64,000 nucleotides of DNA from Candidatus Uhrbacteria bacterium (GCA_016929435.1 JAFGIV010000013.1:15822-79821), one strand, 5' to 3'; shown: positions 40,906 through 63,821, counted from the first letter of the stretch. The notes: generated by a model not told the origin, from the sequence alone. Numbers and translations: made by a program.

Positions 40906-40974
40906 CGTGTCGGTGTCTTTGAAAAATGACGTCCGCCGAACGGTGGCGTCCAAAATCCCCCACAGGAGGAAAAA

Positions 40975-41376: not shown

Positions 41377-41512
41377 CTCCTGCCGCCATCCCCAAAAAAA
41401 TCGCCTTGACCGGGGCGATTTTCTGTTCCCCCCGCCGCCAGGTTCCGGAGGTTCGGATATCCGGCATAATCTGGTATAATACCATTGCAGGATAACTCAA
41501 ATACCATTCGGG

Positions 41513-44842: not shown

Positions 44843-44873
44843 TTTTTTCGTCTATTTTTTTCCGAAAAGGCAT

Positions 44874-47335: not shown

Positions 47336-49564
47336 ATGCTTGGAAGGAAACACCGGGAAAAAATCGCCGCCGTGACGGCCGACGGTCCGGGACACCGGAT
47401 CGGTTGGTTGTTGGCGGCGGTTTTGCTTTTGGCGTCAGCGGCGGCGTGGCCGGAAGCGGCCATGGCCCAGACGTCCGCCGCCGATCAGCTGGCGGCCGGA
47501 TTGGAGTCCACCCAGACAATCGGCCTGGGGACGGCCGATCTGGTGACCATGGTCGGGCGGATCATCAACGTTGCCCTGGGGATTTTGGGCGTCATAGTCG
47601 TTGTCCTGTTCGTGTACGCCGGTTACGTGTACATGATGGCCAAGGGCGATTCGGGGGAGGTCGACAAGGCCAAGCGGATCATGGTCAGTACGGTCATCGG
47701 GCTTGTCATTGTCCTGTCCGCCTACGCCATTACCCAGTTCATCCTTCGCACCATTTTGGGGAGCGTCGGACCGGGCGGCGGCCAGTCCGGTTCGGGGGGT
47801 TCGGTCTTGATGTCGAACTACTGCACGGACTGCGGCCCGGAACAGTTGGGCAACGGGATAATCTCCTACCACTACCCGACGGTCAACCAGACGGACGTGG
47901 AGCGGAACACCGGAATCGCCATTACCTTCAAGCTGCCGCTGTTGCCGTCGTCGGTACTGAAGAACTATTTCGATAACGGGACCTACGATACTGCGGATGA
48001 CGGCTGGTGCCCGACGGATTGCTCCGCGGAAGGGCACAACCCGATCGATCCGGCCAATCCCCCGACCTTTTACCTGAACGACGATAACGTCAAGGTCGTC
48101 CCGTTCGCTGACCTTCAGACGCCTTCCGGAAGCGCGGGTTCGGCGGAGGCCTTTGAGTCCCGGTACGACACCGATGCGGTCCTGTCCGGAGGGGAGGCAA
48201 CCGCCGTGCTGACGGCCGTTTCGCCGGTTTTTGACGTCAACGGATTGGGTCAGACCCTGGTGATCATGCCTACCGAATTTTTGGGAAGCAGCCAGGCTGA
48301 CGTGAACTACAGGGTGGCCCTGCGGGGCGGTTCGGACGAGGGGGCCATTCGGGTATTTGCCTGGGACCCGGATTCCGGCGCACCGGTATCGCGTCCGGCC
48401 TTCGACCGCCTCAATCCGGACGGGTCGTATTTCTGGAATTTCACCACCGGCACCCTCTTGGACCTGACCCCGCCGGAAATAACCGCCGTGGTACCCAAAA
48501 CCGCCAAGAACCTGCCGGTTGACGGCGACGATTCCGGACGGCTGTTCCGCAACCAGCTCCTGCAGGTCTATTTTTCCAAACCCATGAATCCGGCGACGGT
48601 TTCCGGGATCAACGGCAGCGGTTTCGGCTTCATTGAGACCTACTACAGGGACGGGGCGTCATGGAAGGTCCTGCCGGGAACGTGGGTCGTGGCGGCCGGG
48701 TATCGGGCCGTTGAGTACGTCCCTGACATGCCCTGCGACGGCATTACCGAAAACTCCTGTGGGGATAAGGTGTTTTGCCTGCCGTCGGATACCTTGATTG
48801 CCGTGGCCGTAAAGCCGGCCAGCGTCGGGGAACAGCCTCCCCGGGCCGCGGCCCTGAACGGCGTCGTTGACATGGTCGGCAACGTCCTGGACGGCAACGC
48901 CGACGGGGAGCTTTTGGGGCCGGGTCCGGTGGGAATCGGGTCATGGACCATGAACGGCTCCCTTATCCCCGGCACCTCGGTTTGGGCCAATTTTTCCAGG
49001 GATACCGTCATTTGGCTTTATGCGGTCGGAAACCGGATAGACCTTGAGCCGCCGAAGATAACGGCCGTAGACCCCACCAACCTTTCCAGCCGGCTCGGGC
49101 AGCCCTACCCGGACGGGTCGTCGCGGTTTCCGGTCGACCAGCCGATCACCTCCACCTGGACGAAGTCGATGAGCATCAAGTCCATGATCACCGGTCCTGA
49201 TTCCTACGGTCCGGCCACCATCGGCCTGCGGGCACAGGAGATAGCCAAGGACGGATCGGGGATCGGTTCGCCGGCCTTTACGGTCGAACCTGTCCTGGTT
49301 GACGGGGATACCCGCACCAGGATGGTCATGACCCACAGGATTTTCCTCACCGCCAACGATCTCGGATGGACGCCTCTCGACGCCAACCCCTCACTTCCAG
49401 TCTATATTCCGGTATTCAAGTCCCGCCTCCAGGATACCCGCCAAAACTGTTTCTACCCGAGTGAGGCGATCAACTGCTCGGGGATCGGGGAGATCAGCCC
49501 GTTTTGCTGCAGCGATTCGGTCAGCGCATCCGCCCTGCCGGCCTGTAACCCTAGCCTGCCGTAG
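47336..49564 (+). CDS. Secreted/membrane-anchored surface protein (742 aa): signal peptide, pilin-like double-TM N-terminal module, Ig-like (SbsA-type) repeats
   Basis: Signal peptide ending AMA|Q. Module ...MVGRIINVALGILGVIVVVLFVYAGYVYMMAKGDSGEVDKAKRIMVSTVIGLVIVLSAYAITQFIL is shared with the next gene. Gly-rich linker; repeated DLTPPEITAV/DLEPPKITAV Ig-like segments; C-terminal Cys cluster. Confidence 0.6.
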   Translation: MLGRKHREKIAAVTADGPGHRIGWLLAAVLLLASAAAWPEAAMAQTSAADQLAAGLESTQTIGLGTADLVTMVGRIINVALGILGVIVVVLFVYAGYVYMMAKGDSGEVDKAKRIMVSTVIGLVIVLSAYAITQFILRTILGSVGPGGGQSGSGGSVLMSNYCTDCGPEQLGNGIISYHYPTVNQTDVERNTGIAITFKLPLLPSSVLKNYFDNGTYDTADDGWCPTDCSAEGHNPIDPANPPTFYLNDDNVKVVPFADLQTPSGSAGSAEAFESRYDTDAVLSGGEATAVLTAVSPVFDVNGLGQTLVIMPTEFLGSSQADVNYRVALRGGSDEGAIRVFAWDPDSGAPVSRPAFDRLNPDGSYFWNFTTGTLLDLTPPEITAVVPKTAKNLPVDGDDSGRLFRNQLLQVYFSKPMNPATVSGINGSGFGFIETYYRDGASWKVLPGTWVVAAGYRAVEYVPDMPCDGITENSCGDKVFCLPSDTLIAVAVKPASVGEQPPRAAALNGVVDMVGNVLDGNADGELLGPGPVGIGSWTMNGSLIPGTSVWANFSRDTVIWLYAVGNRIDLEPPKITAVDPTNLSSRLGQPYPDGSSRFPVDQPITSTWTKSMSIKSMITGPDSYGPATIGLRAQEIAKDGSGIGSPAFTVEPVLVDGDTRTRMVMTHRIFLTANDLGWTPLDANPSLPVYIPVFKSRLQDTRQNCFYPSEAINCSGIGEISPFCCSDSVSASALPACNPSLP

Positions 49565-49567
49565 CGT

Positions 49568-52500
49568 ATGGTCAGACAAGCCCTTTCCGCAAGAAAAACG
49601 CTGGCCGCCATCCTGGCATTGGGTTTGGGGGCGGTTTTGGCCGTTCCCGCCCTGGCCCAAGTCGATGTCGGCCTGGAATCGGCGGCCGCCATTGGCCTTA
49701 CCACCACTGACATTCGAACGATCGTTTCCCAGGTAATCAACGTTTTCCTGGGTCTTTTGGGTATTGTGGCGGTTGCGCTGATAGTTTACGGCGGATACGT
49801 CTACATGATGGCCAAGGGGGACCAGAACGAGGTTCAGCGCGCCAAGAAGATATTGGTGAACGCCCTCATCGGGCTGATCATAATTTTGGCCTCATACGCC
49901 ATCGCCTCATTCGTGCTGCGGGCGATTTCCGGAGGCAGCGGCGGAGAGGTGGGGGAGGGGGATTGCCCTCCGGGGGCCACCTGCAGCTCCTCCTTCCCGT
50001 CCCCGGGCAACTCCCTCCTGCTGAACGGGGTCATTCCGAGCGGCAGCGGCCCGAACGGGATGGGTTGGACCAGGGATAGCCTGCCCAGGATCGTCTTTAA
50101 CCGCAAAATCGACGCAACCACCCTGGATGACAGCCGCATCAGGGTTACCCGCTGCAACAGCCGGATGGACGGGGAGACGATCGCCGATTTCAGGAACAGC
50201 GCCTGCAATACTGCGGTATCCGGGGAAGTCAGCCTGGTAAACGAGACCACTGCCGTGTTCCGACCGGTCGGACTGGAGAATGAGGGTCTTTTTGACGGTG
50301 ACTACTGGTATCGGCTGGAGCTTCGGGGGATCCCCCTGCCGATCAGGAGCCTGGACGGGAAGGACCTGGCATGCCTGACGGCCCTGCCGGGAGACGGGGA
50401 TTACGATTCCTACGTTCAGAACCTGCCGTCTAATTCCCGGGTCTGCATTAGGGCCATTGCCTACAACACCCTAATTGATACCGGACCGCCCACCGTAGCC
50501 ATCAGTTGGCCCAGGGACGGGCAGTCGATCTGTGCCGATACGACCGAGGCTTCGGCCGTGGCCAGGGACGATGTCCTGGTTTCGGGGATCCGGTTCTCTC
50601 TTTCCGATCCGGCCTCGCCGTCCGACCCGCTTTCCCTGGCCTTCCCGTCGAACCCCTTGGACATCCCCAATTCCGGGCAGGTGACCGGTCCGTTTACCGC
50701 CTCCGCCACGATTTTCGGCAGTCACCTCAACGTTGGACAGGAATACAGGTTTTCGGCCGTGGCTTCCGACCTCCGTTTCCCGAACCCCGAAGGGGAGACT
50801 GTTGGGGTTGATTTCAGCGTCAGGCCCCAGCACTGCTGCGACGGCCAGCTGAACGACGACGAGAGCGGGGTGGACTGTGGCCCTGATTCCGGCTGCGGGT
50901 CGTGCCCGGGGGACGGGTGCACGGAAAACGGCGACTGTTCGTCCGGTTTTTGCGAGGAAGGCGTCTGCGTTTCCCTGCCGCGAATAGTCTCCGTTGACCC
51001 GATTGATCCCAATACGCAAGTTTTTGGCGGCGGTCCGGGGACCCTGGTTACCCTGAACGGCGAGTACTTCGGCGGGGCGGTCGGGGTCGTGGAGTTCTAT
51101 GACGGTACGCATGCCCTGACCGCCGAACCGTGCCTTCCGGGAGCCTGGACCAACGGCCAGGTGACCGTTAGGGTTCCTGAGGGGGTGAAGGTGGGAGGGC
51201 GGTATTTCGTCCGACTGACCAGGTCCGACAGCCGACACACCAGCACGGAAGCCGGACAGGAGGATGCCTACGGCTGGCTGGGGTATTTTCAGGAGAACGG
51301 GAATAACACCCCGGGCATCTGCCTGATCAGGCCGGCCAGCGGCAGCGAGGGCGACGTTTTTGAGGTTGTCGGTGACGGTTTCGGTGACGGTTCGGTGGGT
51401 GACCTGACGGTTAGTTTCGGGATATCCAACCCTTTCACGGTGGTGCCGGATTCCCGGACAGCGTCTTCCCTGACGGCCAAGGTCCCGCGGGCCCCGGAGG
51501 GCACCTATCCGGTTCGGGTTTCCGGATCCGGATGGATGACCACAAACGACCCGAAGTTCGCCGTCCTTCTGCCCTCCGAAAGCATGCAGCCGAAGATCGA
51601 GGGGATTTCGCCGAACGCCGGCCCGGTCGGAAATTACGTTACGATCAGCGGTAAGGGGTTCGGCAGCCAGCGCGGGCGGGTGGTGTTCCTGTTCGGGGAC
51701 GGACTGAACGAGGAACGGGCCATTGGGGCGGATACGGTCTGCGAAGACAGCTGGAAGGACTCCTACGTTACGGTCAAGGTACCGAAACAGTACGAGTGCC
51801 AGGAAGGAAGCGCCTGTCCCCTGCAGTTGGGCACGCACCGGATCCGGGTGGAGACGGCCAAGGGGCTGAAGAGCAACACCGTTAACTTCACGGTCAACAC
51901 CGATCCCCTGACCCCGAACATCTGTTCCATCAAGCCGGATAACGGCCCGCCCGGCACGGTCGTGACGGTGGGCGGGGAAAACCTTGGATCCGGTCCGGCC
52001 GCCGCCGCTCCCCTGAACGCCGTCGGATACGAGTGCCAGGACCCGAACCAGACCGGATGCGACATCAACGGCGTCGCCATGTCCTCGGAGGTCTCCTCCT
52101 GGCAGGTGAAGGCCCTGAAGTCAATCGTTCCGGGCAACAGGCTTAGCGTTGCCACCTGGCCGGACAGCGGCGATGTCCATGTCTGGTCCTACAATGTCCG
52201 CAGCGGAAACGGCCTGCCGTTCCTGGTCCAGGACTGCAACGACGGCGGGGACCGGGCCTGCCCCGCGGGTTTCGTGTGCTGCCAATCCGGTATCTGCGAT
52301 GACGGTTCGTCCAGCCCGACCGGCCGTCCCTGCGACTTCAGCCGCACCAGCGAGTTCGCCTGGCGTTTGAGCACGGAGATGATGCCCGTACCCCCCCAGC
52401 TTCTGACCTGTCCGTCATGCGGGGCGGTCGCCTGTCCCCTGACCGACGGCCTGCAGAGCCCCTCCCCGTTTCCGGGGTCGCGGGATGCCTGCGTCAACGC

Positions 52501-55500
52501 CAACATTGAGGCGGTGATCAGCCAGCGGCTGGAGGTTCCGTCCGGTGTCTCCGCGGCGGTTTCCGTTCTGTCCTGCGGTTCCGGGGAATCGCCGGATTCC
52601 TGTGTCGATGTGACAGGTGAAATGTCCCTGACGGTTTCGGCGGTCGGGGCGGGAGGGGGAAGCGGCCTGGTCAGCATCCGGCCGTCCGGCGGGGATTTCC
52701 TCCTGCCGGATACCTGGTACAGGGTCACTCTCAAATCCGACGGGCTTAGGGAAAACCTGACCGGGAACCGTACGGCCTTTGACGGCGACAGGGACGGCCT
52801 GCCGGGCGGCGATTATGTTTGGGAGTTCCGGACCAAGGATTCCCCCTGTGCCCTTGCGTCGGTAAGCGTAACGCCGAGCGAATACAACATTGACCACTGG
52901 AAGGGACAGCCGTCCCCGGACGACAGCGGTTTCAGGGCCGGCCTTCAGGCCGCCAACTGCAACAGCATCACCTGTGATCCCCTGAGCTATTCCATCGGGT
53001 GGTCGGTATCCGATCCCATGACGATATCCAAGGTGACGACGGCCAAGGCCTGTCACCAGAAGGTAGAGGCCCTGAAGGAAACCCTAATCGGGGAATTGGT
53101 CGACCTTTCGGCCAATGTCCGGCCTGTAGGGGAAACCCTGAGCCGGACCGGGAAGGCGGGGATTACGGCCCGGTTCGCCGATCCGGAGGTAGCGGGATTT
53201 GAGCCTGATTGCGATGAGGCCTGCGTCAACGCCGCCATCGGCATGACGTTCAGCACGCCGATGGAACCGAATTCCGTAATCGCCGGCAATACCGTCCTTC
53301 TCAAGACCTGCCGAAACCAAAGCTGCAACGAGCCTTTCGAGACGGCCGGGGCGGTCGGTCTGGTCGGCATCGAAAGCTATGCTGGCACTGATTCCGACGG
53401 CTATGTCGGATTCAGCCTTGATACCGACTCTGACCTGGCGCCGAACACTTTCTACCTGGTGATGGTGAAGGGCGGAGGGAACGGCGTGATGAGCAAGAGC
53501 GGCAAGACCCTGGTCGGCACCAACCTTACCGATTCCTCCGGAACCCCCTGGTTTACCTGGCGTTTCCGGACCAAGGACAGCAACCTGCCCTGCCAGCCGA
53601 GTCGGGCGGAAATAGTACCAAGGAACGCCGAGTTCAGGTATGTCGGACAGAAACTGCCGCTTTTCGTCCGCACCTACGGTTCCCCCGATTCCTGCAGCGC
53701 CGAAGGGCAGGCCCTGAACGCCGGCGATTACGGCTGGAGTTGGGGAAAGACGGCCAATGGCGTAGTCAGCCGGTTCCTGACCTCTGGGTCGGCCACTGTC
53801 CTGGATACCAATCCGGCCGTCCCGATCGGGTGCTCCTCCAGTTGCCTTAAGGTCGGTTCCCAGACGGCCCGGCCCCAATGCGGCAACGGGAAGGTCGAAT
53901 TAGGGGAGGATTGTGACGGAGGCAGCGGCTGCTCCCCCACCTGCCTGAACACCGGTTCCCCGACCTGCGGCAACGGTGTCCTTGATCCTGGGGAGGATTG
54001 CGAGTCGGTCGGCGGGATATTCCCTCCCGGGTGCTCCGACTGCCTCAATGCCGGATCGGCCCAGGGGAACTCGACCTGCGGCGACGGGTACGTTGGGGAC
54101 GGCGAGGATTGCGACGGGACCAGCGGCTGTGACCCCGTGTCCTGCCTAAATTTGGGGACCTTGCCCAGGTGCGAGGCCGTTACCGCACCCAAACCGGGCG
54201 TTAACTGCATAAACTATTGCGGAAACGGGATTTTGGAATACGGGGAGGAGTGTGAGGCTGCAGGCGGCACCTTTCCCCCGGGTTGCGACAGGAAAACCTG
54301 CCTGTGGGCCGGGACACCCAAGTGTTCCGATCCTGAAGGCGCCAAATGCTGCGGCAACGGGATTACGGACAGCGGGGAGGATCCGGGTTGCGAGTTCGGG
54401 TTCGGCCAATCGGCCGAATGGTGCGACGACCGGTGCCTGAACCGCGGATCCTCATACCTTTACGATTCGCCCAGCTTCTGCGGAGACATGGTTTTGGGCA
54501 GCGGGGAGGAATTGGGGTGTGAGGTGGCCTCCACAGGCCAGCCCGGACCGGCCGATCCTTTCCAGGTGATACTCGGGGGCAAGCCCCTGGCCACGGCCAT
54601 TGACCCGGCCACCGGATCGGCGACCGACACGGTAACATCCCGGACCGGGGGGATTTCGGCATCCAACCAGGGTGAAGCCACCGTCAGCCTTACCTGCCGC
54701 TGCCGGGAGGAGGACGATCCGCACGGTTTCTGTGAGTCGGTGGGGGAAGGTTTGGGGTGCGACGACATCGGCTGCTGCTCGCCGGCTCCCGGCGTGGCCG
54801 GCTCTACGCCGGCGGACGGCTCCTCCAACATCTGCCGCAATGCCCTTGTCAGCGTTGTTTTCGATGCGGCCATCAGTCCAGACTCGGTCAACGGCAGCAG
54901 TTTCCGGGTCGTGCGGGACGCTGGTTTTGGCACGCCGGCCTGCCGGTTCTGCAGTAACGATCCGGACAGGGCCTGCCTGTCCGATGGGGATTGCGGTTCG
55001 GGCGGTACCTGCCAGGACGGGACGGTGGAGAACGGCGGGAAGATACTGGCCGCTGTCGGCACGGGGGAACCGTCCGAAGACGGCGGGTTATGGGATCGGT
55101 TCGTCCGGTTCGTCCGCCGGCTGTTTTTCCGGTCAGCGTCAGCCCAGACTGTACAGACCTTCTGTCGGGTTCCCGGCCAGGTCAGCCTGACCGGACAGGA
55201 CACCGTTACCTTTACCCCGTTCGGCGTAATGTCCGGAACGGTAGGCCACCACATCCTTTTGACCGGCGGCAGCGACGGAATTCGCTCGTCCATGGGCGTG
55301 CCCATGAAGGCGGACCGGAGGATATCGTTCGTCACCTCGGACAGCGTCTGCGAAATAGGATCGATCCGGATCGATCCGGAATCGGTCCTGATCCAGGGCA
55401 TTGAGGGGGAAAACTCCTCCTTTGTCCTGACGGCCCATGCCCAGGCGGCCGGCCAGCCGGTCGGGACGGAAATCGTTTCCACGCCGGCCTATCGGTTCGA

Positions 55501-58500
55501 CTGGAACTGGAACCTGCCGGTCGTCACCTCTCCGGTGGCGCTGACGGTATCCGACTTTTTTCCTGACGGCCAGGGCCACAGTCCGGTATCCGAAGTCAGG
55601 GCCAGGACAGGAGCGGGATTCCCGAAGGAGGGGAGGGAAACCGTAACGGTCCGGACCGACATATACGGTTCGGGGACATCGGTCACCAAAACCATGACTG
55701 CCTCTTCCGATGCGACGGTCATGCTCTGTGAGCACCCGTGGCCGGATTGGCATGTCTGCAGTTCGGCCAATGACGTCTATTATCCCTATCCGGGGCACGC
55801 CGTCGACTGTTCCAGGGCCGGCCAGCAGATGTGGTATCCGTTCATAGACGGAAGCACCCTAACCTCCTTCTATTACTGTCGTGACGGTGCCACGGCCGGC
55901 GATTCCGGACAGTTGCTGCCGGCATTGAGCGGCGTTAAGATCGGCAGTAACCGGGCCGACATCCTCCACGAATACCTGTTCACCTTTCCGGGTTCGGCGG
56001 GGGAAAACTGGGTTAGGGACGCCATCGGACTGCGGGTTTCCAAGAACATGGAGCATTTCGGCATTTCCGACTGGTATTCCCGGCAGGGTTTCGTCGGTTC
56101 CCCGCAGCCGGTAACGATGGACGGCTATGAGGGCCTGAAGGAGGGACGGAGCGTTTACGTAAATGCCGCCGCCAAGACCGCCGTTTCCCCGAACCTGTAC
56201 ACCAATGTGTATACCCTGTCCCACAGTGACGGGGCTTCCCCGGAGACGGTCGGCATTTTCAGCCAGATCCTCGGAAACATGGACATGAACTGGCGGGTCC
56301 TGACCGACAGCCGCTATTGCGTGATTGACGACAGGCAGGTCCTGGTTGACGGGCAACCGGTATATTGCGAGAAGGACCGGGACTGTCGGGTTACGGCCGG
56401 TGACGACGGCCGGGAATCGTTCCCATCCGAAAGGTCCGTTTGGACCTGTCAGGCCGACAGGAGCAAGGTCCGACGCGATGTCCTGCGCTGGTCAGACATC
56501 CATACCATCCGTCTGGCCCTGAACCGGGCCCGGTCGGTAGGCGGATACCCGTCCCTGGATTCCGGGACCTACCTGCGCGGCTGGACCACCAGTGCCTGGC
56601 CGTCCTGGAACGAGGTCTTGGCGAACCAGATCGGTTTGGGGTCGCTTCCGGCCGATCCGGCGGAGGGTTTCATGGACTGCGGAACCGGCGGTTCGGGGCA
56701 CGATTCAGTGACCTGCTGGGATCCGGCTGTCAGGACCTACCGGTGTCCGTCCGGATCGCAGACATATACGTATAGGGGTTTGGGCGGGCTGAACTATGTC
56801 CTGGAGGCGATGTTCGAGTATGCGGACGGAAACTGGGCCAGCGGCACTGCCTGTTTGGGCAAGGGCGAGCCTGCCTGCCGGGCAAACGACCGTTGCGAAT
56901 GGCTTTCCTCCGACGGCTCCCCTTCGGAATGCCAATACCGGGGCGGCGGTCGGATAAGGGTCAGGGGTATCGGTAACGTTGAAACCACGTGCTCATCCGG
57001 GGTTACCGTTGGCATCGGCTCGGTTTGCGGTGACGGCCTGGTCGGGGAAGGGGAGGAATGCGAGCCGGGAGTGTCGTCCCCGCGCCAGATTCCCTGCGCG
57101 GCGGATTCGCGGAGCGGTTTCCGCCATCAGGCCTGCAATGACCAGTGCCGGTGGCAGGACTCCAGCGGCTGCATTACCGGTTCCTGCGGCGACGGCATTG
57201 TCCAGACGGAAGCGGGCGAGGCCTGCGATGACGGGCCCCTGAACGGGCAATACGGCCGATGCGGCAATGACTGCACCTATTCTGCCTCCCGATGCGGCGA
57301 CGGCGTCCGTCAGGCCAACGAGGCCTGCGATTGTGCACCCGGCGGGTTGCCGAACGGCACCTATGCCCTGAACGGCGTCCTGGCATCGTCCGGACAGCGG
57401 TGCGGAAACTCCGGACACGCCGTTCCGGGGTGTGCCTGGGACTGTTCCGGTCCCGGACCGCGCTGCGGTGACCTGGTGGTGAACGGCAGCGAGCAGTGCG
57501 ACGGCGGGACGGAGGAATATCCCAGGCTGTGCATCGGAAAGAACAACGGCAACCCGAAACGGCCGGTCATGACCGGCAACACCTACAGTCCGGTTCCCGG
57601 AAACGCCTACACCGGGTGTCGGACAGATGCCGATTGCCCGAGTGACCAGGTTTGCGCCGCCCTATGCGATCCTGACAGGCCGGAGCGGGTCTGGCGCAGG
57701 AACTGCCAGAGCAACGACCCGTTCGATTGGTTCGATAACGATGACGGCAGGGCCTGCACCTGGACCGTTTGGCAGTGCGGCTCGGCAGGTTTCTGCGGCA
57801 ACGGGGTCTTGGAAACGGGGGAGGAATGCGATGACGGCAATGACGACAATATGGACTCCTGCATCATCGACCCGAACGGCACCGGAACCTTCGGGACGCC
57901 GGTGATGTGCCGGAAAGCCGCCTGCGGCGACGGCTACGTCAGCCCGTCCAACAACGAGGAGTGCGATGCCGGCAGCCAAAACGGCCAGTCCTGCATTGCG
58001 GAATACGGCAAGACCTGCTCGTTCTGTTCGACGGGATGCAAGTTGGCCTACGTTTCCGGCGGGTTCTGCGGGGACAGCGTCATCCAGAACCGTTCCTTTG
58101 TCCCTCCGGGGCCGGAGGAATGCGAAGGGAGCCTGGAGCTGGAGAACTGGGTCTGCGTCAGCGACCGCCCGGAACACCAGATGTTCGGAAAGATGACCGG
58201 TTTGGCCATATGTGACCACGAAAGGGGGTGTGTCCGGGGGTGTTCCGATTCCGGGTCGGTCCCGTGCCTGGAGACCGGGAACCCGCTTGCCGGATCGGAT
58301 TACGACGGGGAGGCCGGATGGGACAAGCCGAACGATGCCCTTTTGGCGGCCATCGGTTACGGTTATGACCTGGGACAGACGGTTTTGGCTGACGGGCCGT
58401 GCGATCCGGACTGGGATAACGACGGCGTGCCCAACGGTTCGGACTGCCGCCCGACGGTCAGTGAGGTGCATCCCGCATACCAGGTGGTGGCCTCGGACGG

Positions 58501-59320
58501 CAAGGTCTTGAGGGTTCCGGCTGCCTTTGACGACTGCGACGGCTGCGATAACGACTGCGACGGCGTAGTGGACAACGGCGATCCCGACATATTCAAGAAG
58601 GTGGACATCCTGTTCGTGGTGGACGGTTCCGCATCAATGGACACCAGCATTCGGGGGCTGACCATGTTCACGGCGGATTTGGCCAGGCAGATGATACCTC
58701 CGGATAGGCCGGATGGGGTTCCGGCTGAAGTGGGAACAAAAGTCAAGCTGGGCCTCATCCAGTACTCGTGGAAAAGCAAGGATGATGAGGGTTCGGGCTA
58801 CAGGCGCGAATTAGACCTCTCCACCCCCAAGGTCTATTCCGAATGGGCGGATGGTTTCGCTGACAAGTGTGAGGGGGACTGCACCACCCAAGGCGGAATA
58901 GAAGCCGGAACCGCCATGCTGTGGAAGATACTCCAGGACCGGTTCGTCGATGAAAGCACCATGCCGGACATCACTTGGGACCAAGACGCCGTCCCCTACA
59001 TCATCATCATGACCGATGACAACCCCTACCAGCTGGTGGATGTCATCGAGAAATCGGCCCCCTCGGATATACGCGACATGTTGGGTGACGATCCGAGGGC
59101 CCAGATATTCGCCCTGCAGATGAGAACGAGAAGATGTTCCCCAGGTTCCTGTTCAGAGCATTGGGATATCGTTTTCGCCAACTACCCGGAAAACGAGACT
59201 CACCTCAAGGTTGCGGATCCGGGTAAGGATTTCGAGTATTACAGGGGAGAGTTCGGCCAGTTCTTCTACGACTATATCCTGAGACACATCTGCTACGCCT
59301 ATGTCTGCAGATTCGACTGA
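49568..59320 (+). CDS. Giant cell-surface protein (3250 aa): pilin-like N-terminal anchor module, IPT/TIG repeats, numerous Cys-rich CxxCGDG...EECDDG repeats, C-terminal VWA domain
   Basis: Uninterrupted 9.75 kb ORF. N-terminus paralogous to the 47336 gene. IPT/TIG-like segments (PRIVSVDPIDP...GGGPGTLVTLNGEYFG; PKIEGISPNAGPVGNYVTISGKGFG; PNICSIKPDNGPPGTVVTVGGENLG). More than 15 repeats of the CGNG/CGDGxxxxGEECD type. VWA with MIDAS DxSxS (DILFVVDGSASMDTS). Confidence 0.7.
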   Translation: MVRQALSARKTLAAILALGLGAVLAVPALAQVDVGLESAAAIGLTTTDIRTIVSQVINVFLGLLGIVAVALIVYGGYVYMMAKGDQNEVQRAKKILVNALIGLIIILASYAIASFVLRAISGGSGGEVGEGDCPPGATCSSSFPSPGNSLLLNGVIPSGSGPNGMGWTRDSLPRIVFNRKIDATTLDDSRIRVTRCNSRMDGETIADFRNSACNTAVSGEVSLVNETTAVFRPVGLENEGLFDGDYWYRLELRGIPLPIRSLDGKDLACLTALPGDGDYDSYVQNLPSNSRVCIRAIAYNTLIDTGPPTVAISWPRDGQSICADTTEASAVARDDVLVSGIRFSLSDPASPSDPLSLAFPSNPLDIPNSGQVTGPFTASATIFGSHLNVGQEYRFSAVASDLRFPNPEGETVGVDFSVRPQHCCDGQLNDDESGVDCGPDSGCGSCPGDGCTENGDCSSGFCEEGVCVSLPRIVSVDPIDPNTQVFGGGPGTLVTLNGEYFGGAVGVVEFYDGTHALTAEPCLPGAWTNGQVTVRVPEGVKVGGRYFVRLTRSDSRHTSTEAGQEDAYGWLGYFQENGNNTPGICLIRPASGSEGDVFEVVGDGFGDGSVGDLTVSFGISNPFTVVPDSRTASSLTAKVPRAPEGTYPVRVSGSGWMTTNDPKFAVLLPSESMQPKIEGISPNAGPVGNYVTISGKGFGSQRGRVVFLFGDGLNEERAIGADTVCEDSWKDSYVTVKVPKQYECQEGSACPLQLGTHRIRVETAKGLKSNTVNFTVNTDPLTPNICSIKPDNGPPGTVVTVGGENLGSGPAAAAPLNAVGYECQDPNQTGCDINGVAMSSEVSSWQVKALKSIVPGNRLSVATWPDSGDVHVWSYNVRSGNGLPFLVQDCNDGGDRACPAGFVCCQSGICDDGSSSPTGRPCDFSRTSEFAWRLSTEMMPVPPQLLTCPSCGAVACPLTDGLQSPSPFPGSRDACVNANIEAVISQRLEVPSGVSAAVSVLSCGSGESPDSCVDVTGEMSLTVSAVGAGGGSGLVSIRPSGGDFLLPDTWYRVTLKSDGLRENLTGNRTAFDGDRDGLPGGDYVWEFRTKDSPCALASVSVTPSEYNIDHWKGQPSPDDSGFRAGLQAANCNSITCDPLSYSIGWSVSDPMTISKVTTAKACHQKVEALKETLIGELVDLSANVRPVGETLSRTGKAGITARFADPEVAGFEPDCDEACVNAAIGMTFSTPMEPNSVIAGNTVLLKTCRNQSCNEPFETAGAVGLVGIESYAGTDSDGYVGFSLDTDSDLAPNTFYLVMVKGGGNGVMSKSGKTLVGTNLTDSSGTPWFTWRFRTKDSNLPCQPSRAEIVPRNAEFRYVGQKLPLFVRTYGSPDSCSAEGQALNAGDYGWSWGKTANGVVSRFLTSGSATVLDTNPAVPIGCSSSCLKVGSQTARPQCGNGKVELGEDCDGGSGCSPTCLNTGSPTCGNGVLDPGEDCESVGGIFPPGCSDCLNAGSAQGNSTCGDGYVGDGEDCDGTSGCDPVSCLNLGTLPRCEAVTAPKPGVNCINYCGNGILEYGEECEAAGGTFPPGCDRKTCLWAGTPKCSDPEGAKCCGNGITDSGEDPGCEFGFGQSAEWCDDRCLNRGSSYLYDSPSFCGDMVLGSGEELGCEVASTGQPGPADPFQVILGGKPLATAIDPATGSATDTVTSRTGGISASNQGEATVSLTCRCREEDDPHGFCESVGEGLGCDDIGCCSPAPGVAGSTPADGSSNICRNALVSVVFDAAISPDSVNGSSFRVVRDAGFGTPACRFCSNDPDRACLSDGDCGSGGTCQDGTVENGGKILAAVGTGEPSEDGGLWDRFVRFVRRLFFRSASAQTVQTFCRVPGQVSLTGQDTVTFTPFGVMSGTVGHHILLTGGSDGIRSSMGVPMKADRRISFVTSDSVCEIGSIRIDPESVLIQGIEGENSSFVLTAHAQAAGQPVGTEIVSTPAYRFDWNWNLPVVTSPVALTVSDFFPDGQGHSPVSEVRARTGAGFPKEGRETVTVRTDIYGSGTSVTKTMTASSDATVMLCEHPWPDWHVCSSANDVYYPYPGHAVDCSRAGQQMWYPFIDGSTLTSFYYCRDGATAGDSGQLLPALSGVKIGSNRADILHEYLFTFPGSAGENWVRDAIGLRVSKNMEHFGISDWYSRQGFVGSPQPVTMDGYEGLKEGRSVYVNAAAKTAVSPNLYTNVYTLSHSDGASPETVGIFSQILGNMDMNWRVLTDSRYCVIDDRQVLVDGQPVYCEKDRDCRVTAGDDGRESFPSERSVWTCQADRSKVRRDVLRWSDIHTIRLALNRARSVGGYPSLDSGTYLRGWTTSAWPSWNEVLANQIGLGSLPADPAEGFMDCGTGGSGHDSVTCWDPAVRTYRCPSGSQTYTYRGLGGLNYVLEAMFEYADGNWASGTACLGKGEPACRANDRCEWLSSDGSPSECQYRGGGRIRVRGIGNVETTCSSGVTVGIGSVCGDGLVGEGEECEPGVSSPRQIPCAADSRSGFRHQACNDQCRWQDSSGCITGSCGDGIVQTEAGEACDDGPLNGQYGRCGNDCTYSASRCGDGVRQANEACDCAPGGLPNGTYALNGVLASSGQRCGNSGHAVPGCAWDCSGPGPRCGDLVVNGSEQCDGGTEEYPRLCIGKNNGNPKRPVMTGNTYSPVPGNAYTGCRTDADCPSDQVCAALCDPDRPERVWRRNCQSNDPFDWFDNDDGRACTWTVWQCGSAGFCGNGVLETGEECDDGNDDNMDSCIIDPNGTGTFGTPVMCRKAACGDGYVSPSNNEECDAGSQNGQSCIAEYGKTCSFCSTGCKLAYVSGGFCGDSVIQNRSFVPPGPEECEGSLELENWVCVSDRPEHQMFGKMTGLAICDHERGCVRGCSDSGSVPCLETGNPLAGSDYDGEAGWDKPNDALLAAIGYGYDLGQTVLADGPCDPDWDNDGVPNGSDCRPTVSEVHPAYQVVASDGKVLRVPAAFDDCDGCDNDCDGVVDNGDPDIFKKVDILFVVDGSASMDTSIRGLTMFTADLARQMIPPDRPDGVPAEVGTKVKLGLIQYSWKSKDDEGSGYRRELDLSTPKVYSEWADGFADKCEGDCTTQGGIEAGTAMLWKILQDRFVDESTMPDITWDQDAVPYIIIMTDDNPYQLVDVIEKSAPSDIRDMLGDDPRAQIFALQMRTRRCSPGSCSEHWDIVFANYPENETHLKVADPGKDFEYYRGEFGQFFYDYILRHICYAYVCRFD

Positions 59321-59338: not shown

Positions 59339-59842
59339 ATGAGAAAGTTCGCCATTGCCATTGTCCTGCTGTCCGTCCTGCTGACGGCCGGAATAGTGCT
59401 GGTCGTAAGGGAACGGAACAGACATTCGGTTTCCGGAGTCCCAGACGTCCCGCTGGCCGGAAACGTGGGATCCGAATCCGGCCTGACTGCGGATAATTCG
59501 GGCCCGACCCAGCCGTTCTGCGGGGACTATGTCTGCGACACCGGGGAGACGATTGCCGGCTGCCCCATTGACTGTCCGCCGACGGTCATGTCCGGGGTGG
59601 AAATACGGAACCAAACCGCCGACGTTTCGTGGAAAAGCCTGATACCGGTGACCATTTCCGTCCGGTACGGCTCCGGTACCCTGGACCGCACCGCCAACCT
59701 GGATCGGGCATCAACGGAACACGAGTTAAGGCTGGAGGGAATCGAGCCGGATACGATATACGACCTGTGCGTTGTTTCGGTTGGGGAGGACGGAACCCGG
59801 TATCCGGAATCGTGCGATGAGTTCCGGTCTCCGGCGGAATAG
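59339..59842 (+). CDS. Small membrane-anchored protein with Cys-rich motif and FN3-like domain
   Basis: N-terminal signal anchor; CGDYVCDTGETIAGCPIDC motif, the same pattern as the repeats in the 60536 gene; beta-rich C-terminal domain. Confidence 0.5.
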   Translation: MRKFAIAIVLLSVLLTAGIVLVVRERNRHSVSGVPDVPLAGNVGSESGLTADNSGPTQPFCGDYVCDTGETIAGCPIDCPPTVMSGVEIRNQTADVSWKSLIPVTISVRYGSGTLDRTANLDRASTEHELRLEGIEPDTIYDLCVVSVGEDGTRYPESCDEFRSPAE

Positions 59843-59876
59843 GGCGGCTTTTGTGGTATAGTAACGGTATAGGCTT

Positions 59877-60539
59877 ATGTTTGATTCCGTACAGGAACCG
59901 GAGGACATCTTCGCCGGGACTGATCCGGTGGCGCCGGCAGGGAACGCCGCGCCGGTGGCGACCGGGGAGACGGAGGGGTCTCCGGCCATAACGAGGAAAG
60001 GTCCGTCGCCGCTGATCCCCATTGCCGTCATTGCCCTTGTTTTTGGGGCCGTCGGCGGCGGGGGTTACTATTGGTATTCCCAGCGAACCGGCGGCCATGC
60101 CTCGGTTTTGGAGGAACAACCGGTCGAGACCGTGGAAACGGAACCCGTTCAGGAAGAGACGTTCGGGGAGGAATTGCCGGAAGGGTTTCCGGACACGGAG
60201 GGGGAGGAAACGGAAGGGATCGGAAATGGAACGGAAGGGGAGACCGAAACCGGCGGGGAGGAATCTGCGGAGGGGGAGGGCGAACCAACGGAACCGGTCA
60301 ATGCCGTTGATACCGACGGTGACGGCTTGAGCGACGACGAGGAGCTGGCGATCGGTTCCGACCCGTCGGTAACCGACACGGACGGGGACGGGCTGACCGA
60401 TTTCGACGAGGTCCGCATATACCGGTCAGACCCATTGCTGGCGGATACGGACGGCGACGGTTACCCGGACGGCCTGGAGGTTTCCGGCGGCTATAGCCCC
60501 ATCGGTCCGGGCCGCCTGTTCGAGGTTCCGGTCGAGTGA
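59877..60539 (+). CDS. Membrane protein with acidic linker and three thrombospondin-type-3-like Ca-binding repeats
   Basis: Single TM; DTDGDGLSDDEE, DTDGDGLTDFDE, DTDGDGYPDGLE repeats. Confidence 0.5.
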   Translation: MFDSVQEPEDIFAGTDPVAPAGNAAPVATGETEGSPAITRKGPSPLIPIAVIALVFGAVGGGGYYWYSQRTGGHASVLEEQPVETVETEPVQEETFGEELPEGFPDTEGEETEGIGNGTEGETETGGEESAEGEGEPTEPVNAVDTDGDGLSDDEELAIGSDPSVTDTDGDGLTDFDEVRIYRSDPLLADTDGDGYPDGLEVSGGYSPIGPGRLFEVPVE

Positions 60540-61741
60540 TTTTTACGGATATGAAGGAAGACAGCGACAAAAACACGGAAGGGATAGGGCAAGTCCCTTC
60601 AGGGAACGGGGAGGCGGCACCGAAGAATCCGGAACCGCCGGTTATCCATGTCATTCCCGATGAGTTTCACGGGGCGGCCCTGAAGCGGAAAGTCAGGCTG
60701 TCCCAGCCCGAAAAGCCAAAAAAGACCCCGCCGCCCAAGGTTTCGCCTGAAAAGGCCGGACCGCCGGCAAAGGCATCCGGACAGAAGCCCGATGGCGCCG
60801 ACAGGCGGAAAAGGGGGATACTGATGGCGATCATGGGGCTGTTCATCCTGGCAATCATCGGTCTGGCGGCCTATTATTTTCTGTACGTGAGAAAGGCCCC
60901 GCCGGCGGAGGAGGTGCCGATCACCGAGGAACCGGAGATTCGTTGCGGAGACGGCCGCTGCGATGACGGCGAGGATGCGGTGACCTGCGCTTCCGACTGT
61001 GCGGTGAAGGCCTTTTGCGGGGACGGAACCTGCCAGGAGTCGGAGGGGGAGGATTGGCGCTCCTGTCCGGGGGACTGCGAGGTTCCGGAACCGGTATGCG
61101 GGGACGGGATCTGCGAGGAGGCCATCGGGGAGGGTTACGAGACCTGTCCGGAGGACTGCGAACCGCCGGCCCCCAGCCCCTCCCCGGATACGGACAGCGA
61201 CGGCATGACCGATATCGAGGAGACCGAAATCTACGGCACCAACCCCTATATCCCGGATACGGACGGGGACAGTTTCGTTGACCTGAACGAGCTGCTCAAC
61301 CTGTTTAACCCGTCCAAGATTCAGCCGTCCGTCCTTTTGGACAATCCCGGAGTCGCCGAATTCGGGAGTCAGACGGAAGGGTATCTCCTGATCTACCCGA
61401 AGGCCTGGACCGTCAGCGAGGATGCGGACAGGAAGACCGCCGTCTTTCAGGCGGGCAGCGGAGAGTCGATATCCGTTTCCGTGGACGAGAACACGGAAGG
61501 GTTGAGCCTGATGGATTGGTACCTGTCCGGGAACCCCTCCCTCCGCAGTTCGGAGGTTCCGGTGTTCCGGACAAAATACGGCTACGACGAGATCGTCAGC
61601 CAGGACCAGATGGTTTCCCACGTGGGGATAGACGGGCGGATTTTTACCGTCAGGTACGAATTGGGCAACCAGCTGAAGATTCGCTACAAGGCGACCTTTA
61701 AGATGATGGTCAACAGCATTAAGCCGCCGTCAGGGCTATGA
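60536..61741 (+). CDS. Membrane protein with three CGDGxC...C..DC mini-repeats, TSP3-like repeats and a C-terminal globular domain
   Basis: Pro/Lys-rich N-terminus, single TM. CGDGRCDDGEDAVTCASDC / CGDGTCQESEGEDWRSCPGDC / CGDGICEEAIGEGYETCPEDC; DTDSDGMTD, DTDGDSFVD. GTGA overlap with the upstream gene and ATGA overlap with ybeY. Confidence 0.5.
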   Translation: MIFTDMKEDSDKNTEGIGQVPSGNGEAAPKNPEPPVIHVIPDEFHGAALKRKVRLSQPEKPKKTPPPKVSPEKAGPPAKASGQKPDGADRRKRGILMAIMGLFILAIIGLAAYYFLYVRKAPPAEEVPITEEPEIRCGDGRCDDGEDAVTCASDCAVKAFCGDGTCQESEGEDWRSCPGDCEVPEPVCGDGICEEAIGEGYETCPEDCEPPAPSPSPDTDSDGMTDIEETEIYGTNPYIPDTDGDSFVDLNELLNLFNPSKIQPSVLLDNPGVAEFGSQTEGYLLIYPKAWTVSEDADRKTAVFQAGSGESISVSVDENTEGLSLMDWYLSGNPSLRSSEVPVFRTKYGYDEIVSQDQMVSHVGIDGRIFTVRYELGNQLKIRYKATFKMMVNSIKPPSGL

Positions 61742-62172
61742 TTGACGTGGAATGCTCCGGCCGTTTCCCGTCCGGATTGGGCAGGGACGAGGCCGTCAGC
61801 CTGGTGCGGAGGGTGATCGGGACTTCCGGTGACTGGAAAACCGCAACGGTCAGCCTGTCCCTGGTCAATGACCGTGAAATCAGGCGGATCAACCGGAAAT
61901 GGCGGGGGGTTGACCGCCCGACCGATGTCCTTTCGTTCTCGTATCCCAGGATCGGTTCCGGCCAGGTGCCGAAATCCGGTGACGTCGTCATTTCCCTGGA
62001 AACCGTCCGGCGCCAGGCCAAGACGAACCTCCGGACGGTCCGGGAGGAGCTGGCCCTGATGATCGTTCACGGCTGCCTGCATCTCCTGGGGTTTGACCAC
62101 GATACGGCGGCCAGGGAGAACCGGATGTTCCGCATCCAACAGGACATGCTGTTGGGAACCGGATTTTTCTGA
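61738..62172 (+). CDS. ybeY: rRNA maturation endoribonuclease YbeY
   Basis: HGCLHLLGFDH zinc-binding motif. Confidence 0.88.
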   Translation: MIDVECSGRFPSGLGRDEAVSLVRRVIGTSGDWKTATVSLSLVNDREIRRINRKWRGVDRPTDVLSFSYPRIGSGQVPKSGDVVISLETVRRQAKTNLRTVREELALMIVHGCLHLLGFDHDTAARENRMFRIQQDMLLGTGFF

Positions 62173-62177
62173 AGGCC

Positions 62178-62540
62178 ATGATGATCAGCCCCAAAAAGGT
62201 AATCCGGAGTTTCCGCCACGCCCTTCGGGGGACGGTCAAGGTGTTTCGGGAAGAGCACAGCTTCAGGGTGGAGCTGGTCGCCGCCGCCGCCGTTACGGTC
62301 CTGATGTTCGCTTTTGGGCTCCGAACCTCAGAGAAGGCCATTCTCGTACTGGTCATGCTTCTGGTCCTCGTCCTGGAGCTGGTCAACAGCGTCTTCGAGC
62401 GGATCGCCGACATGCTGAAGCCGCGCTTCCATCCCTATGTGGAGGACCTGAAGGACATCATGGCGGCCACTGTCCTCGTTTCTGCGGTAGGGGCGGTTGC
62501 CATCGGGCTTTTGATTTTTTGGCCCTATATTGTAAAATAA
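62178..62540 (+). CDS. dgkA: DgkA-family membrane kinase (diacylglycerol/undecaprenol kinase)
   Basis: 120 aa, 3 TM; ELVNSVFE and DLKDIMAATVL blocks as in DgkA. Confidence 0.75.
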   Translation: MMISPKKVIRSFRHALRGTVKVFREEHSFRVELVAAAAVTVLMFAFGLRTSEKAILVLVMLLVLVLELVNSVFERIADMLKPRFHPYVEDLKDIMAATVLVSAVGAVAIGLLIFWPYIVK

Positions 62541-62573: not shown

Positions 62574-63821
62574 ATGCCCAACGACGAATTGTTTGCCGGA
62601 ATAGACATAGGGACGACGGCCGTCCGGGTGGCGGTCGGCCAAAGGTTGCCGATGGGGGACAGGGAAACCGTCCACATCATCGGTGTGGCCGACCACCCGA
62701 CCGAGGGGGTGAAACGTGGGGTCATCAATTCCATTGAGGACGCCGTTTCTTCGGTTTCGGCCTGCCTGGAGAAGGCCGAGCGGGGTTTGGGCAGCCAGAT
62801 ATCCTCCGCATGGGTAGGCGTTTCCGGGAACCAGGTCAGTTCCGTCGTAAGCAAGGGGGTCACCGCGGTTTCCAGGACGGATGGGGAGATCAGGGAGGAG
62901 GATGTCGAGCGGGCCCTGCAGCAGGCCCAGACCGTGGCCTTGCCGGCTAATTTTGAGACCATCCATGTCTTGCCGCGCGCCTATTCCGTTGACGGACAGA
63001 CCGGCATAAAGGATCCGGTAGGCATGACCGGAATCCGTCTGGAGGTCGAGTCCCAGATCATCCAGGCCCCTACCCCCTACATAAAGAACCTGACCAAATG
63101 CGTCTATCGGACCGGAATCAACCTGGAGCAGACCGTTTTGGGTATCCTGGCGGCAGCGGAGGTGACGGTCAGCCAGAGACAGAAGGAGTTGGGGGTGGCG
63201 GTCGTCAATATCGGGCACTCCTCCACCTCCATGGCCGTCTTTGAGGGCGGGGACCTGCTTCACCTGGCCTCCGTTCCCATCGGGTCGGATCATGTCACGG
63301 CCGATTTGGCCATCGGGTTACGGACCACCCTGGATATCGCCGAAAGGATCAAGGTCGGACACGCTTCGGCCGTACCGGGACAATTCGACAAGAACGACCG
63401 CATTGACCTGATGGAGTTGGGGGCCGACGAGAGGGAGGATTGCTCCCTGAAATTCGTGGCACAGATCGTTCAGGCTCGCCTGGAGGAACTGCTGGAGAAG
63501 ATCGATCGGGAGATGGTGAAGGTCGGACGGAGCGGGATGCTTCCGGCCGGAGTGGTGATGACCGGCGGGGGATCAAAGACGGCGGGCCTGGTGGACTTGG
63601 CCAAGAGAAAGCTTCGGCTGCCGGTTTCCCTCGGATACCCGGTAAACATCACCAGCTACACCGATCGGGTCAACGACTTGTCCTATACGACCGCCATCGG
63701 CTTGGTCCAGTGGGGAATAAACGAATCCGGCCCGATGGGGAAAAGCGGATCCTTTGCCGGTTTTCGGATGGCGGAAAAGGCCGTCGGAAGGATCAAGGGG
63801 CTTTTTGGGGTCAGGACCTGA
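62574..63821 (+). CDS. ftsA: Cell division protein FtsA
   Basis: Actin-like ATPase; FAGIDIGTTAVRVAV phosphate-1 motif; about 415 aa. Confidence 0.88.
   Translation: MPNDELFAGIDIGTTAVRVAVGQRLPMGDRETVHIIGVADHPTEGVKRGVINSIEDAVSSVSACLEKAERGLGSQISSAWVGVSGNQVSSVVSKGVTAVSRTDGEIREEDVERALQQAQTVALPANFETIHVLPRAYSVDGQTGIKDPVGMTGIRLEVESQIIQAPTPYIKNLTKCVYRTGINLEQTVLGILAAAEVTVSQRQKELGVAVVNIGHSSTSMAVFEGGDLLHLASVPIGSDHVTADLAIGLRTTLDIAERIKVGHASAVPGQFDKNDRIDLMELGADEREDCSLKFVAQIVQARLEELLEKIDREMVKVGRSGMLPAGVVMTGGGSKTAGLVDLAKRKLRLPVSLGYPVNITSYTDRVNDLSYTTAIGLVQWGINESGPMGKSGSFAGFRMAEKAVGRIKGLFGVRT

Follow-up and report, generated by a model that had tools for sequence, protein, structure and literature searches.

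The closest characterised analogue of the genes described here is CglD of Myxococcus xanthus, a Ca2+-dependent protein of gliding and adhesion in which COMP/TSP3-like repeats are joined to a VWA domain and a Cys-rich stalk. A parallel combination seems to be spread over several genes in a 64 kb stretch of DNA (the window) from a metagenome-assembled genome of Candidatus Uhrbacteria (GCA_016929435.1, JAFGIV010000013.1:15822-79821), a member of the Patescibacteria or candidate phyla radiation (CPR). Three small genes, g1, g2 and g3 (the trio), follow the gene for a giant surface protein of 3250 amino acids (aa), which is itself preceded by the gene for a 742-aa paralogue (Table 1). The products of g1 and g3 are identical to the NCBI proteins JW899_02895 and JW899_02905, respectively. 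In CPR bacteria, host attachment is the role generally given to giant membrane proteins. The reading towards which we lean, with moderate confidence, is that g1–g3 serve the giant adhesin-like protein as partners anchored in the membrane, within a conserved surface module of Uhrbacteria-type Patescibacteria.

Proteins of the TSP3_bac type (CglD, MtsC/MtsD) and the T3 'calcium wire' of eukaryotic COMP/thrombospondin resemble the trio in carrying tandem DxDxDGxxDxxE repeats on an extracytoplasmic protein. In CglD these parts all belong to a single large lipoprotein in the outer membrane of a diderm, whereas in the window the repeats are distributed among small bitopic proteins of the inner membrane, and the separate giant holds the VWA-like and Cys-rich parts. 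The NCBIfam matches of g2 to CglD and MtsD (26–31 bits) are far below the equivalog cut-offs of 400–800 bits. The PsbP/Mog1 superfamily includes PsbP, PsbP_2, the DUF1795/DcrB/Eag chaperones, Tsi3 and Apa, which are mainly known as protein-binding modules; Apa is a mycobacterial protein that binds fibronectin. The C-terminal head of g3 is modelled with the same fold and, like PsbP and Apa, would lie outside the cytoplasm, but its sequence likeness is marginal, it has no photosystem context, and it is fused to a transmembrane (TM) helix, a stalk and TSP3 repeats. Patescibacteria also carry arrays of 2–11 VirB2 genes (PMC12102498), and the 742-aa and giant proteins share with these the two-helix domain and the tandem layout. 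They differ in that the pilin-like domain here anchors ectodomains of 700–3,250 aa, in that the conserved bitopic trio follows, and in that VirB4 and VirB6 were not found among the open reading frames (ORFs) scanned.

The favoured reading draws mainly on conserved linkage. Loci were gathered by exact protein look-up (6), by pattern and tblastn searches at species level (80) and from three more distant relatives; the linkage holds in about 85 loci from about 80 species. The order giant-(g1)-g2-g3-ybeY-dgkA-ftsA, followed by ftsZ, nrdR, pyk and ppdK, was found in 84 of the 86 loci and in the three distant relatives. Both the order and the tight spacing are retained down to 21–30% identity in g3. 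An earlier note on this DNA had proposed looking for co-occurrence with giant homologues, and wherever the flank is long enough an orthologue of the giant does precede g3. Homologues of the 742-aa protein are found upstream of the giant in L062, L071, L081, L085 and L086. The one clear rearrangement, in a distant Patescibacteria genome (L080, 11809-15071), has the order yqeY-giant-g2-g3, then mreC, a 166-aa ORF with no Pfam match, PBP2 and greA, and this breakpoint indicates that g2 and g3 travel with the giant and not with ybeY. In both arrangements the neighbours of the module are cell-shape or division genes (ftsA/ftsZ, or mreC and a PBP2-type transpeptidase).

The trio cassette is core and vertically inherited in this lineage, and the earlier description of the three genes as 'accessory' is wrong. 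What the loci conserve is the gene order, the TSP3 repeats, the PsbP-like head and the cytoplasmic motifs. Measured from the 742-aa gene through g3, the cassette spans about 14 kb, in genomes whose longest assembled contigs are 1.0–1.5 Mb, and its invariance over about 80 species makes it likely to be central to the biology of these cells. The sampled records are titled Uhrbacteria, Magasanikbacteria, Parcubacteria, 'Patescibacteria group' and, in many cases, 'uncultured Gammaproteobacteria'. Dozens of GTDB species-representative records with the last title (L011, L014, L016, L018, L021 and others) have the Patescibacteria-specific cassette and synteny, and these titles appear to be bulk placeholder mislabels. 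In one further locus (L003, 12262-13518) ftsA is called as two ORFs of 223 and 170 aa, probably through a frameshift or an assembly error.

The intergenic gaps of the window from the giant to ftsA are 18, 34, 11 (or -4), -4, 5 and 33 nucleotides (nt), and no terminator-like sites were seen between the cassette genes before the end of ftsA in a scan of the window, although the site counts of this promoter and terminator scan were not above those of shuffled sequence. The cassette, including the giant and its 742-aa paralogue, is probably co-transcribed. The stop codon of g3 and the start of ybeY overlap as ATGA (61738-61741). A second overlap proposed earlier, GTGA between g2 and g3, depends on GTG 60536 being the start codon of g3, which is doubtful; we prefer ATG 60551 as the predicted start, which leaves an 11-nt gap and agrees both with the NCBI model (396 aa for JW899_02905) and with the alignment of 33 homologues at their N-termini. 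Translational coupling with ybeY, which had also been proposed, is not conserved: the gap between g3 and ybeY varies in five relatives (+6, +69, +70, -4 and +60 nt) and mreC takes the place of ybeY in L080. ybeY is a syntenic neighbour outside the surface module. The suggestion that the trio are partners of the giant remains plausible from the conserved linkage and the gaps of 18, 34 and 11 nt; the motif likeness on which it had been based does not support it, and the motif does not co-vary with the repeats of the giant.

It is firmly established that the trio are three bitopic surface proteins built from known module types. The protein encoded by g2 begins with a cytoplasmic motif (MFDSVQEPEDIFA), of which the form MFD..EPxDIF recurs in positional orthologues, and continues with a TM helix, a Glu/Gly-rich acidic linker and three TSP3 repeats. 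It matches Pfam TSP3_bac (PF18884) over 3 stretches with 71.3 bits, well above the cut-off of 25 (E = 5.7e-20), and is predicted to bind Ca2+. Three TSP3 repeats are present in g2 in 49 of 72 loci. The protein has no cysteines and ends in a conserved tail (GGYSPIGPGRLF; GGYxPxGPGrLF in the orthologue alignment). A tail of this type, GYNPxGPG(K/R)LF, closes g2 and many of the proteins at the g1 position (the window, L020 and L029 being among the C-termini compared), and could be a docking or sorting element; some lineages have instead a terminal two-Cys loop, G(K/R)C-x4-C-xx.

The g3 protein has a cytoplasmic region of about 90 residues, in which the motif PPVIHVIPDEFHGAALK is followed by a Lys/Pro-rich tail. 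In the family alignment the motif reads PVIHVIPxxFYGAALK, with I32, H33, V34, I35, P36, F39, G41 and A42 at least 90% conserved, and few other stretches of the family are as well preserved. Outside genes at the g3 position it was not found in the window ORFs or the 86 loci, except for one chance match in the giant ORF of L017. C-terminal of the TM helix come three 4-Cys units (knots), two TSP3 repeats and a domain of about 130 residues. On its own g3 scores 14.8 bits against TSP3_bac, below the cut-off, while 19 of the 34 family members reach E <= 0.01; D213, D217, G218, D221, E223 and E224 are invariant in the repeats, and two repeats are present in 59 of 72 loci. Basic residues N-terminal of the TM helix, with extracellular-type domains beyond it, indicate an N-in/C-out topology for both g2 and g3.

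An AlphaFold model of the g3 ectodomain, built with 74 homologues, has a predicted local distance difference test score (pLDDT) of 94 and a predicted template-modelling score of 0.82, with the knots at pLDDT 85–96. A Foldseek search of the PDB with the C-terminal head gave 19 matches at E <= 1e-3, mostly PsbP or PsbP-like proteins together with BT_1490 and Apa, at probability 1.0. E-values for PsbP, BT_1490 and Apa ranged from 8e-6 (the best, to PsbP) to 5e-4, with target-normalised template-modelling scores of 0.42–0.56, and Tsi3 and Mog1 were just above 1e-3. The model thus places the head in the PsbP/Mog1 fold, an alpha-beta-alpha sandwich. The likeness to PsbP proper is at the level of the fold only, and the organism is a non-photosynthetic CPR bacterium: g3 is below the curated PsbP cut-offs (PF01789, 14.5 against 23.5 bits, E = 0.037; NF040946, 13.3 against 60), and the match of PsbP_2 (PF18933) to the L080 orthologue is also sub-threshold (E = 1.5e-4). 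A divergent FtsQ/DivIB was considered as another identity for g3 in view of the nearby ftsA; it is rejected on the fold, the listed Foldseek matches including no POTRA structure, and neither FtsQ nor POTRA gave a Pfam match. Four of 34 family members weakly match PF14283, 'Mobile element protein CD1107-like', a family of conjugative elements (best E = 7e-4), which may be compositional.

The g1 protein is the shortest of the three. Its TM anchor is modelled as a helix of residues 3–26, followed by a disordered linker, one 4-Cys knot at residues 61–79 (CGDYVCDTGETIAGCPIDC) and a beta-sandwich at residues 82–163 with a pLDDT of about 90. Almost all of the top 50 Foldseek matches in the PDB are FN3 domains (E = 1.8e-5, target-normalised score 0.6–0.69), and the modelled domain has the seven-strand beta-sandwich of the FN3 fold; Pfam fn3 (PF00041) is below its cut-off (E = 0.0095, 16.6 against 25 bits). 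A single-sequence homology search found only g1 itself, and a profile of positional orthologues gave a narrow family of 6 clusters. Most other Uhrbacteria have a different TM protein of 260–300 aa at this position (for example L024, 8585-9466, and L033, 8593-9378), and the common form has exactly 12 cysteines arranged as six C-x8-10-C pairs, then TSP3 repeats and a g2-type GYNPxGxG tail. The knot-plus-FN3 form of the window is a clade-specific replacement.

The giant begins with a signal peptide and the two TM helices of a VirB2-like T4SS_pilin domain. Both it and the 742-aa protein belong with the VirB2/TrbC-like T4SS pilins (PF18895, PF04956) by their match to PF18895, scoring 41 and 38.8 bits, respectively, against its cut-off of 26.6. 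Its ectodomain has TIG and Big_5 immunoglobulin-like domains and 15 CG[DN] sites, and a VWA-like region with a DGSAS (DxSxS) motif lies towards the C-terminus; a weak VWA match was also seen at the L089 locus, in the upstream protein, which is truncated there. The giant resembles a fibrillar adhesin held in the membrane by a VirB2-like anchor and, possibly, ending in a VWA/metal-ion-dependent adhesion site. The tandem T4SS_pilin genes (742 and 3250 aa) also form a 'pilin array' of the kind reported in Patescibacteria, here anchoring very large ectodomains.

Most of the CG[DN] sites have the DUF4215/disintegrin-like form CG[DN]G-x5-9-E-x-C[DE], of the type of DUF4215 or 'Myxococcus cysteine-rich repeat' (PF13948, TIGR02232), and the giants of L004 and L006 match PF13948 faintly. 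Such repeats resemble the start of disintegrin domains (CGNGxxExGEECDCG). The earlier note had seen in the knots of the trio an echo of these repeats, from which it proposed co-evolved partners. The two belong to different cysteine frameworks: none of the 15 sites of the window giant has the 4-Cys arrangement, by regular expression or manual listing, and PF13948 does not match g1 or g3 at E <= 1, the knot spacing being different. What they have in common is the CG[DN]G start, an acidic character and their joint occurrence in some unrelated proteins (P0066, P0068). Co-variation between the knots of the trio and the Cys repeats of the giant was likewise rejected, as the visible giant orthologues have 7–12 repeats of the DUF4215 type, and a Cys content of about 5%, both with and without knots in the trio.

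The knots were counted with the expression CG[DN][GYLM].C.{5,14}C..DC on the six-frame translation of the window, and the TSP3 repeats with D.D.D[GS]..D; as controls, the residues of each protein were shuffled, and the nucleotides of the window 100 times. Exactly four Cys motifs were found, one in g1 and three in g3, and TSP3 motifs at the five sites of g2 and g3 plus one unrelated site in the giant. The shuffle expectation was about 0 and 0.01, respectively, so that the occurrences are far above chance. All of the motif copies quoted in the earlier note were therefore found in place, and its three membrane proteins are indeed single-pass with extracytoplasmic repeat domains. Its title blurred the sharing: the Cys motif is in g1 and g3 and the TSP3 repeat in g2 and g3, each in two of the three proteins, as its own body text correctly had it.

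As a signature of this locus the Cys motif fared poorly. When 1.84 billion representative proteins were searched exhaustively by HMMER, the segment of g3 with the three knots gave at least 1,355 clusters at E <= 1e-3 (313 at E <= 1e-10), and the top matches are proteins unrelated to the g3 orthologues, up to 2,957 aa long with up to 16 matched stretches. Tandem arrays of the knot occur in secreted proteases, lectins and similar proteins; some have signal peptides or lipoboxes, and others trypsin, PPC, SH3_3, RCC1, FecR, H-lectin or DUF4215 domains. Over 76 proteins the consensus reads CGDGxCxxGExxxxCPxDC, in which positions of Cys, Gly, Glu and Asp do not vary, and the framework is C-x4-C-x8-11-C-x3-C within 19–21 residues. 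The knot had no match in the Pfam and NCBIfam copies searched, a PDB sequence search with the Cys-repeat region gave nothing meaningful, and literature searches on the motif, and on Patescibacteria with thrombospondin repeats, returned nothing relevant. It is thus a genuine extracellular mini-domain, widespread and apparently uncatalogued. It is not specific to this locus, nor is it a low-complexity pattern. Four of the 76 knot-array proteins match Pfam Somatomedin_B (best E = 6e-10), either on the knots or on separate domains.

Among 78 positional orthologues of g3 from species-level genomes, the stalk is a Pro-rich linker only in 43, FN3 in 29 and Cys knots in 6, leaving 72 without the motif. 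Cysteines are absent from g3 in 65 of 72 loci, number 12–16 in the knot forms and two in one locus, so that almost all of them belong to knots, as would be expected if the modules are held by disulfides. The clade with Cys knots has one copy in g1, sometimes two in g2, and in L001 and L003 also copies inserted in a loop of the giant, opposite residues ~1996–2009 of the window protein (BLAST), where the knot is an insertion/deletion polymorphism within giant orthologues. A stretch of the window giant (CGDMVLGSGEELGCEV) was considered as a degenerate knot remnant and rejected, as the window lacks the L001/L003 insertions there. The knot behaves as an optional, mobile spacer that FN3 or Pro-rich linkers can replace, and is for this reason no signature of functional partnership; it is the least specific and least informative feature of the locus. 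The mini-domain (CGDGxC-x-C-x2-DC), for which no solved relative was found, and its interchangeability as a spacer are two facts that can be reused elsewhere, while the parts of this locus worth following are the conserved cassette, the cytoplasmic motifs and the PsbP-like head.

The small proteins follow a shared plan in which a short conserved cytoplasmic peptide leads into one TM helix, a variable stalk, two to three TSP3 repeats and a terminal element. This last would be the GYNPxGPGkLF tail in g2 and the PsbP/Mog1-fold protein-binding head in g3, while g1 here has the knot and FN3. The knot, self-contained and presumably closed by two disulfides, would be a rigid spacer setting the distance of the Ca-binding and PsbP-like parts from the membrane, and the TSP3 repeats may give Ca2+-dependent rigidity as Ca-stiffened connectors. 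The PsbP-like head could be a docking surface, the cytoplasmic motifs could tie the assembly to an intracellular partner, and the trio as a whole may hold, organise or co-present the giant adhesin-like fibre for attachment to a host or surface. We infer the disulfides, the binding of Ca2+, the contact with the giant and the role in adhesion. The cassette is relevant to host attachment in Uhrbacteria-type CPR bacteria; the giant, the PsbP-like head and the two cytoplasmic peptides are targets for cryo-electron tomography, proteomics and host identification by antibody or fluorescence in situ hybridisation.

Several points weigh against this picture. Physical contact between the trio and the giant is itself something that we infer, and adjacency within one lineage may be inherited synteny, with a single informative breakpoint (L080). 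The module always stands beside division or elongation genes, which fits a role in envelope morphogenesis equally well. The VWA match of the giant is weak (13 bits, E = 0.12), and by a crude regular expression a DxSxS motif lies near the C-terminus in about one third of the visible giant orthologues, making 'adhesin' a plausible label only. Basic residues lie on both sides of the TM helix of g1, so that its orientation is taken from the type of domain.

The first alternative, that the trio are independent modular surface or Ca-binding proteins without a functional tie to the giant, their adjacency being frozen ancestral synteny, has a minor but appreciable chance of being correct. The sampled loci all represent a single group of related Patescibacteria, the motifs in common are generic and occur in many unrelated proteins, and g1 is dispensable or replaced in many genomes. 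Mere inheritance fits less well with an order and spacing that persist at such low g3 identity and across the L080 rearrangement, or with genes packed without terminator-like sites between them. The Cys-knot clade, moreover, has the knot in up to four cassette proteins, none of which carries it elsewhere, suggesting shared constraints or exchange within the locus.

A role in envelope morphogenesis or division was regarded as the strongest rival, although it is improbable. Here g2 and g3 would couple the FtsA/FtsZ or MreC/PBP2 machinery to the envelope through their cytoplasmic peptides, and the giant would be an envelope or S-layer-like element. The near invariance of these peptides is typical of peptides that dock on cytoplasmic partners, the genes are core and not variable, and ybeY-dgkA-ftsA-ftsZ lies downstream in about 85 loci, with mreC, the 166-aa ORF and PBP2 in L080. 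Essential genes lie close together in the small genomes of CPR bacteria, so that such neighbours could easily be coincidental, and ybeY and dgkA separate g3 from ftsA. The g3 head is modelled as PsbP/Mog1, and the Foldseek matches listed include no POTRA structure of the FtsQ/DivIB type; Pfam and NCBIfam matched g1–g3 to no family of the divisome or elongasome, and the set of ectodomains (TIG, Big_5, FN3, TSP3, VWA-like) is typical of adhesins.

The two ideas may also be combined, in a decidedly doubtful proposal of a lineage-defining, integrin-like adhesion device. In it g2 and g3 would hold a giant VirB2-anchored fibre, and their peptides would dock on the actin- or tubulin-like cytoskeleton of the neighbouring genes (FtsA/FtsZ, or MreC/PBP2 in L080), coupling host attachment to division or growth. 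It is drawn from the conserved motifs, the suggestive neighbours in two independent arrangements and the adhesin-like ectodomains and, if true, attachment and division or growth would be mechanically or spatially coupled in episymbionts. For the stalks, the integrin-type Cys-rich (I-EGF) or FN3 modules of eukaryotic adhesion receptors offer a functional analogy only: there, too, small modules that can replace one another keep a ligand- or partner-binding head at a rigid distance from a TM helix and its short cytoplasmic tail. No homology is claimed, the knots are half the size of EGF, and the orientation here is N-in/C-out.

It is very improbable that the trio are assembly or anchoring factors of a VirB2-like filament incorporating the pilin-like domains of the 742-aa and giant proteins. 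Two tandem proteins do have T4SS_pilin domains, four g3 orthologues weakly match the CD1107-like family, and VirB2-like arrays are widespread in Patescibacteria, an array and the type IV secretion system (T4SS) cluster being reportedly essential for epibiotic growth in one cultured strain (PMC12102498). No T4SS component family matched g1–g3 in Pfam or NCBIfam, the CD1107-like matches are sub-threshold and may be compositional, and the proposal is weakened further by the lack of VirB4, VirB6 and other T4SS genes among the 36 longer window ORFs covered by the Pfam scans (all outside the 24–34 kb span) and in the inspected flanks of relatives, so that the ORFs scanned do not make up a T4SS locus. 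Last, the suggestion that the Cys motif arose by chance or from low complexity, or that it forms a Zn knuckle in the cytoplasm and no extracellular disulfide module (it has four cysteines as C-x4-C...C-x3-C, and no solved structure or curated family was found), is essentially refuted by the shuffle expectation near 0, the tandem arrays with invariant Cys/Gly/Glu/Asp positions in at least 1,355 clusters, the signal peptides, lipoboxes and secreted-enzyme domains of the proteins that carry it, and the place of the g3 knots beyond the TM helix, beside the TSP3 repeats and modelled with high pLDDT.

Table 1. Genes of the cassette and its neighbours, with the parts of the encoded proteins, in window coordinates
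Feature	Position (nt)	Strand	Evidence
yqeY	46835-47293	+	
742-aa protein, N-terminal VirB2-like T4SS_pilin and Big_5, first of the tandem 'pilin' pair	47336-49564	+	PF18895 E = 9.9e-10
Giant 3250-aa surface protein	49568-59320	+	Pfam: T4SS_pilin 2.1e-10, TIG 1.4e-15, Big_5 1.4e-13, VWA 0.12
Giant, VirB2-like T4SS_pilin domain	49730-49918		
Giant, VWA-like region with DGSAS motif	58601-58642		
g1, 167 aa, TM, one 4-Cys knot and FN3	59339-59842	+	AlphaFold, Foldseek
g1, TM anchor	59348-59407		
g1, 4-Cys knot	59519-59575		
g1, FN3	59582-59830		
g2, 220 aa, cytoplasmic motif, TM, acidic linker and three TSP3	59877-60539	+	TSP3_bac E = 5.7e-20
g2, cytoplasmic motif	59877-59915		
g2, TM	60012-60077		
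g2, TSP3 repeats	60309-60344, 60375-60410, 60444-60479		
g2, C-terminal tail	60486-60521		
g3, 396 aa from ATG 60551 (401 aa from GTG 60536)	60551 (or 60536)-61741	+	~66 full-length homologues
g3, cytoplasmic motif	60635-60685		
g3, TM	60815-60889		
g3, 4-Cys knots	60944-61000, 61016-61078, 61097-61159		
g3, TSP3 repeats	61187-61222, 61256-61291		
g3, C-terminal (PsbP-like) domain	~61349-61738		
ybeY, rRNA-maturation endoribonuclease	61738-62172	+	Pfam YbeY E = 2.8e-32, TIGR00043 E = 9.5e-35
dgkA	62178-62540	+	
ftsA	62574-63821	+	

The remaining Pfam-scanned ORFs of the window are housekeeping genes (secY, adk, map, recO, aminoacyl-tRNA synthetases, scpAB, parAB, relA, topA, dprA, fusA and others). 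Two histidyl-tRNA-synthetase-like genes are present (16889-18211 and 44727-46334); the second, an ORF of 535 aa from a TTG, overlaps the end of a lepB-like gene (44216-44842), and its true start is probably further downstream. Adjacent class II synthetase paralogues of the Asp/Asn/Lys type, with tRNA-synt_2 and an OB anticodon domain, are found at 5579-6931 and 6944-8338. The G+C content falls to 0.48–0.53 at 38001-42000 and 10001-12000, compared with about 0.60 elsewhere; the first of these dips spans a DUF5700 putative Zn-peptidase gene (39076-40059) and a DUF218 gene, and may be a small foreign island. A presenilin-type signal-peptide peptidase (2033-2869; PF06550, E = 1e-19) is encoded directly after secY.

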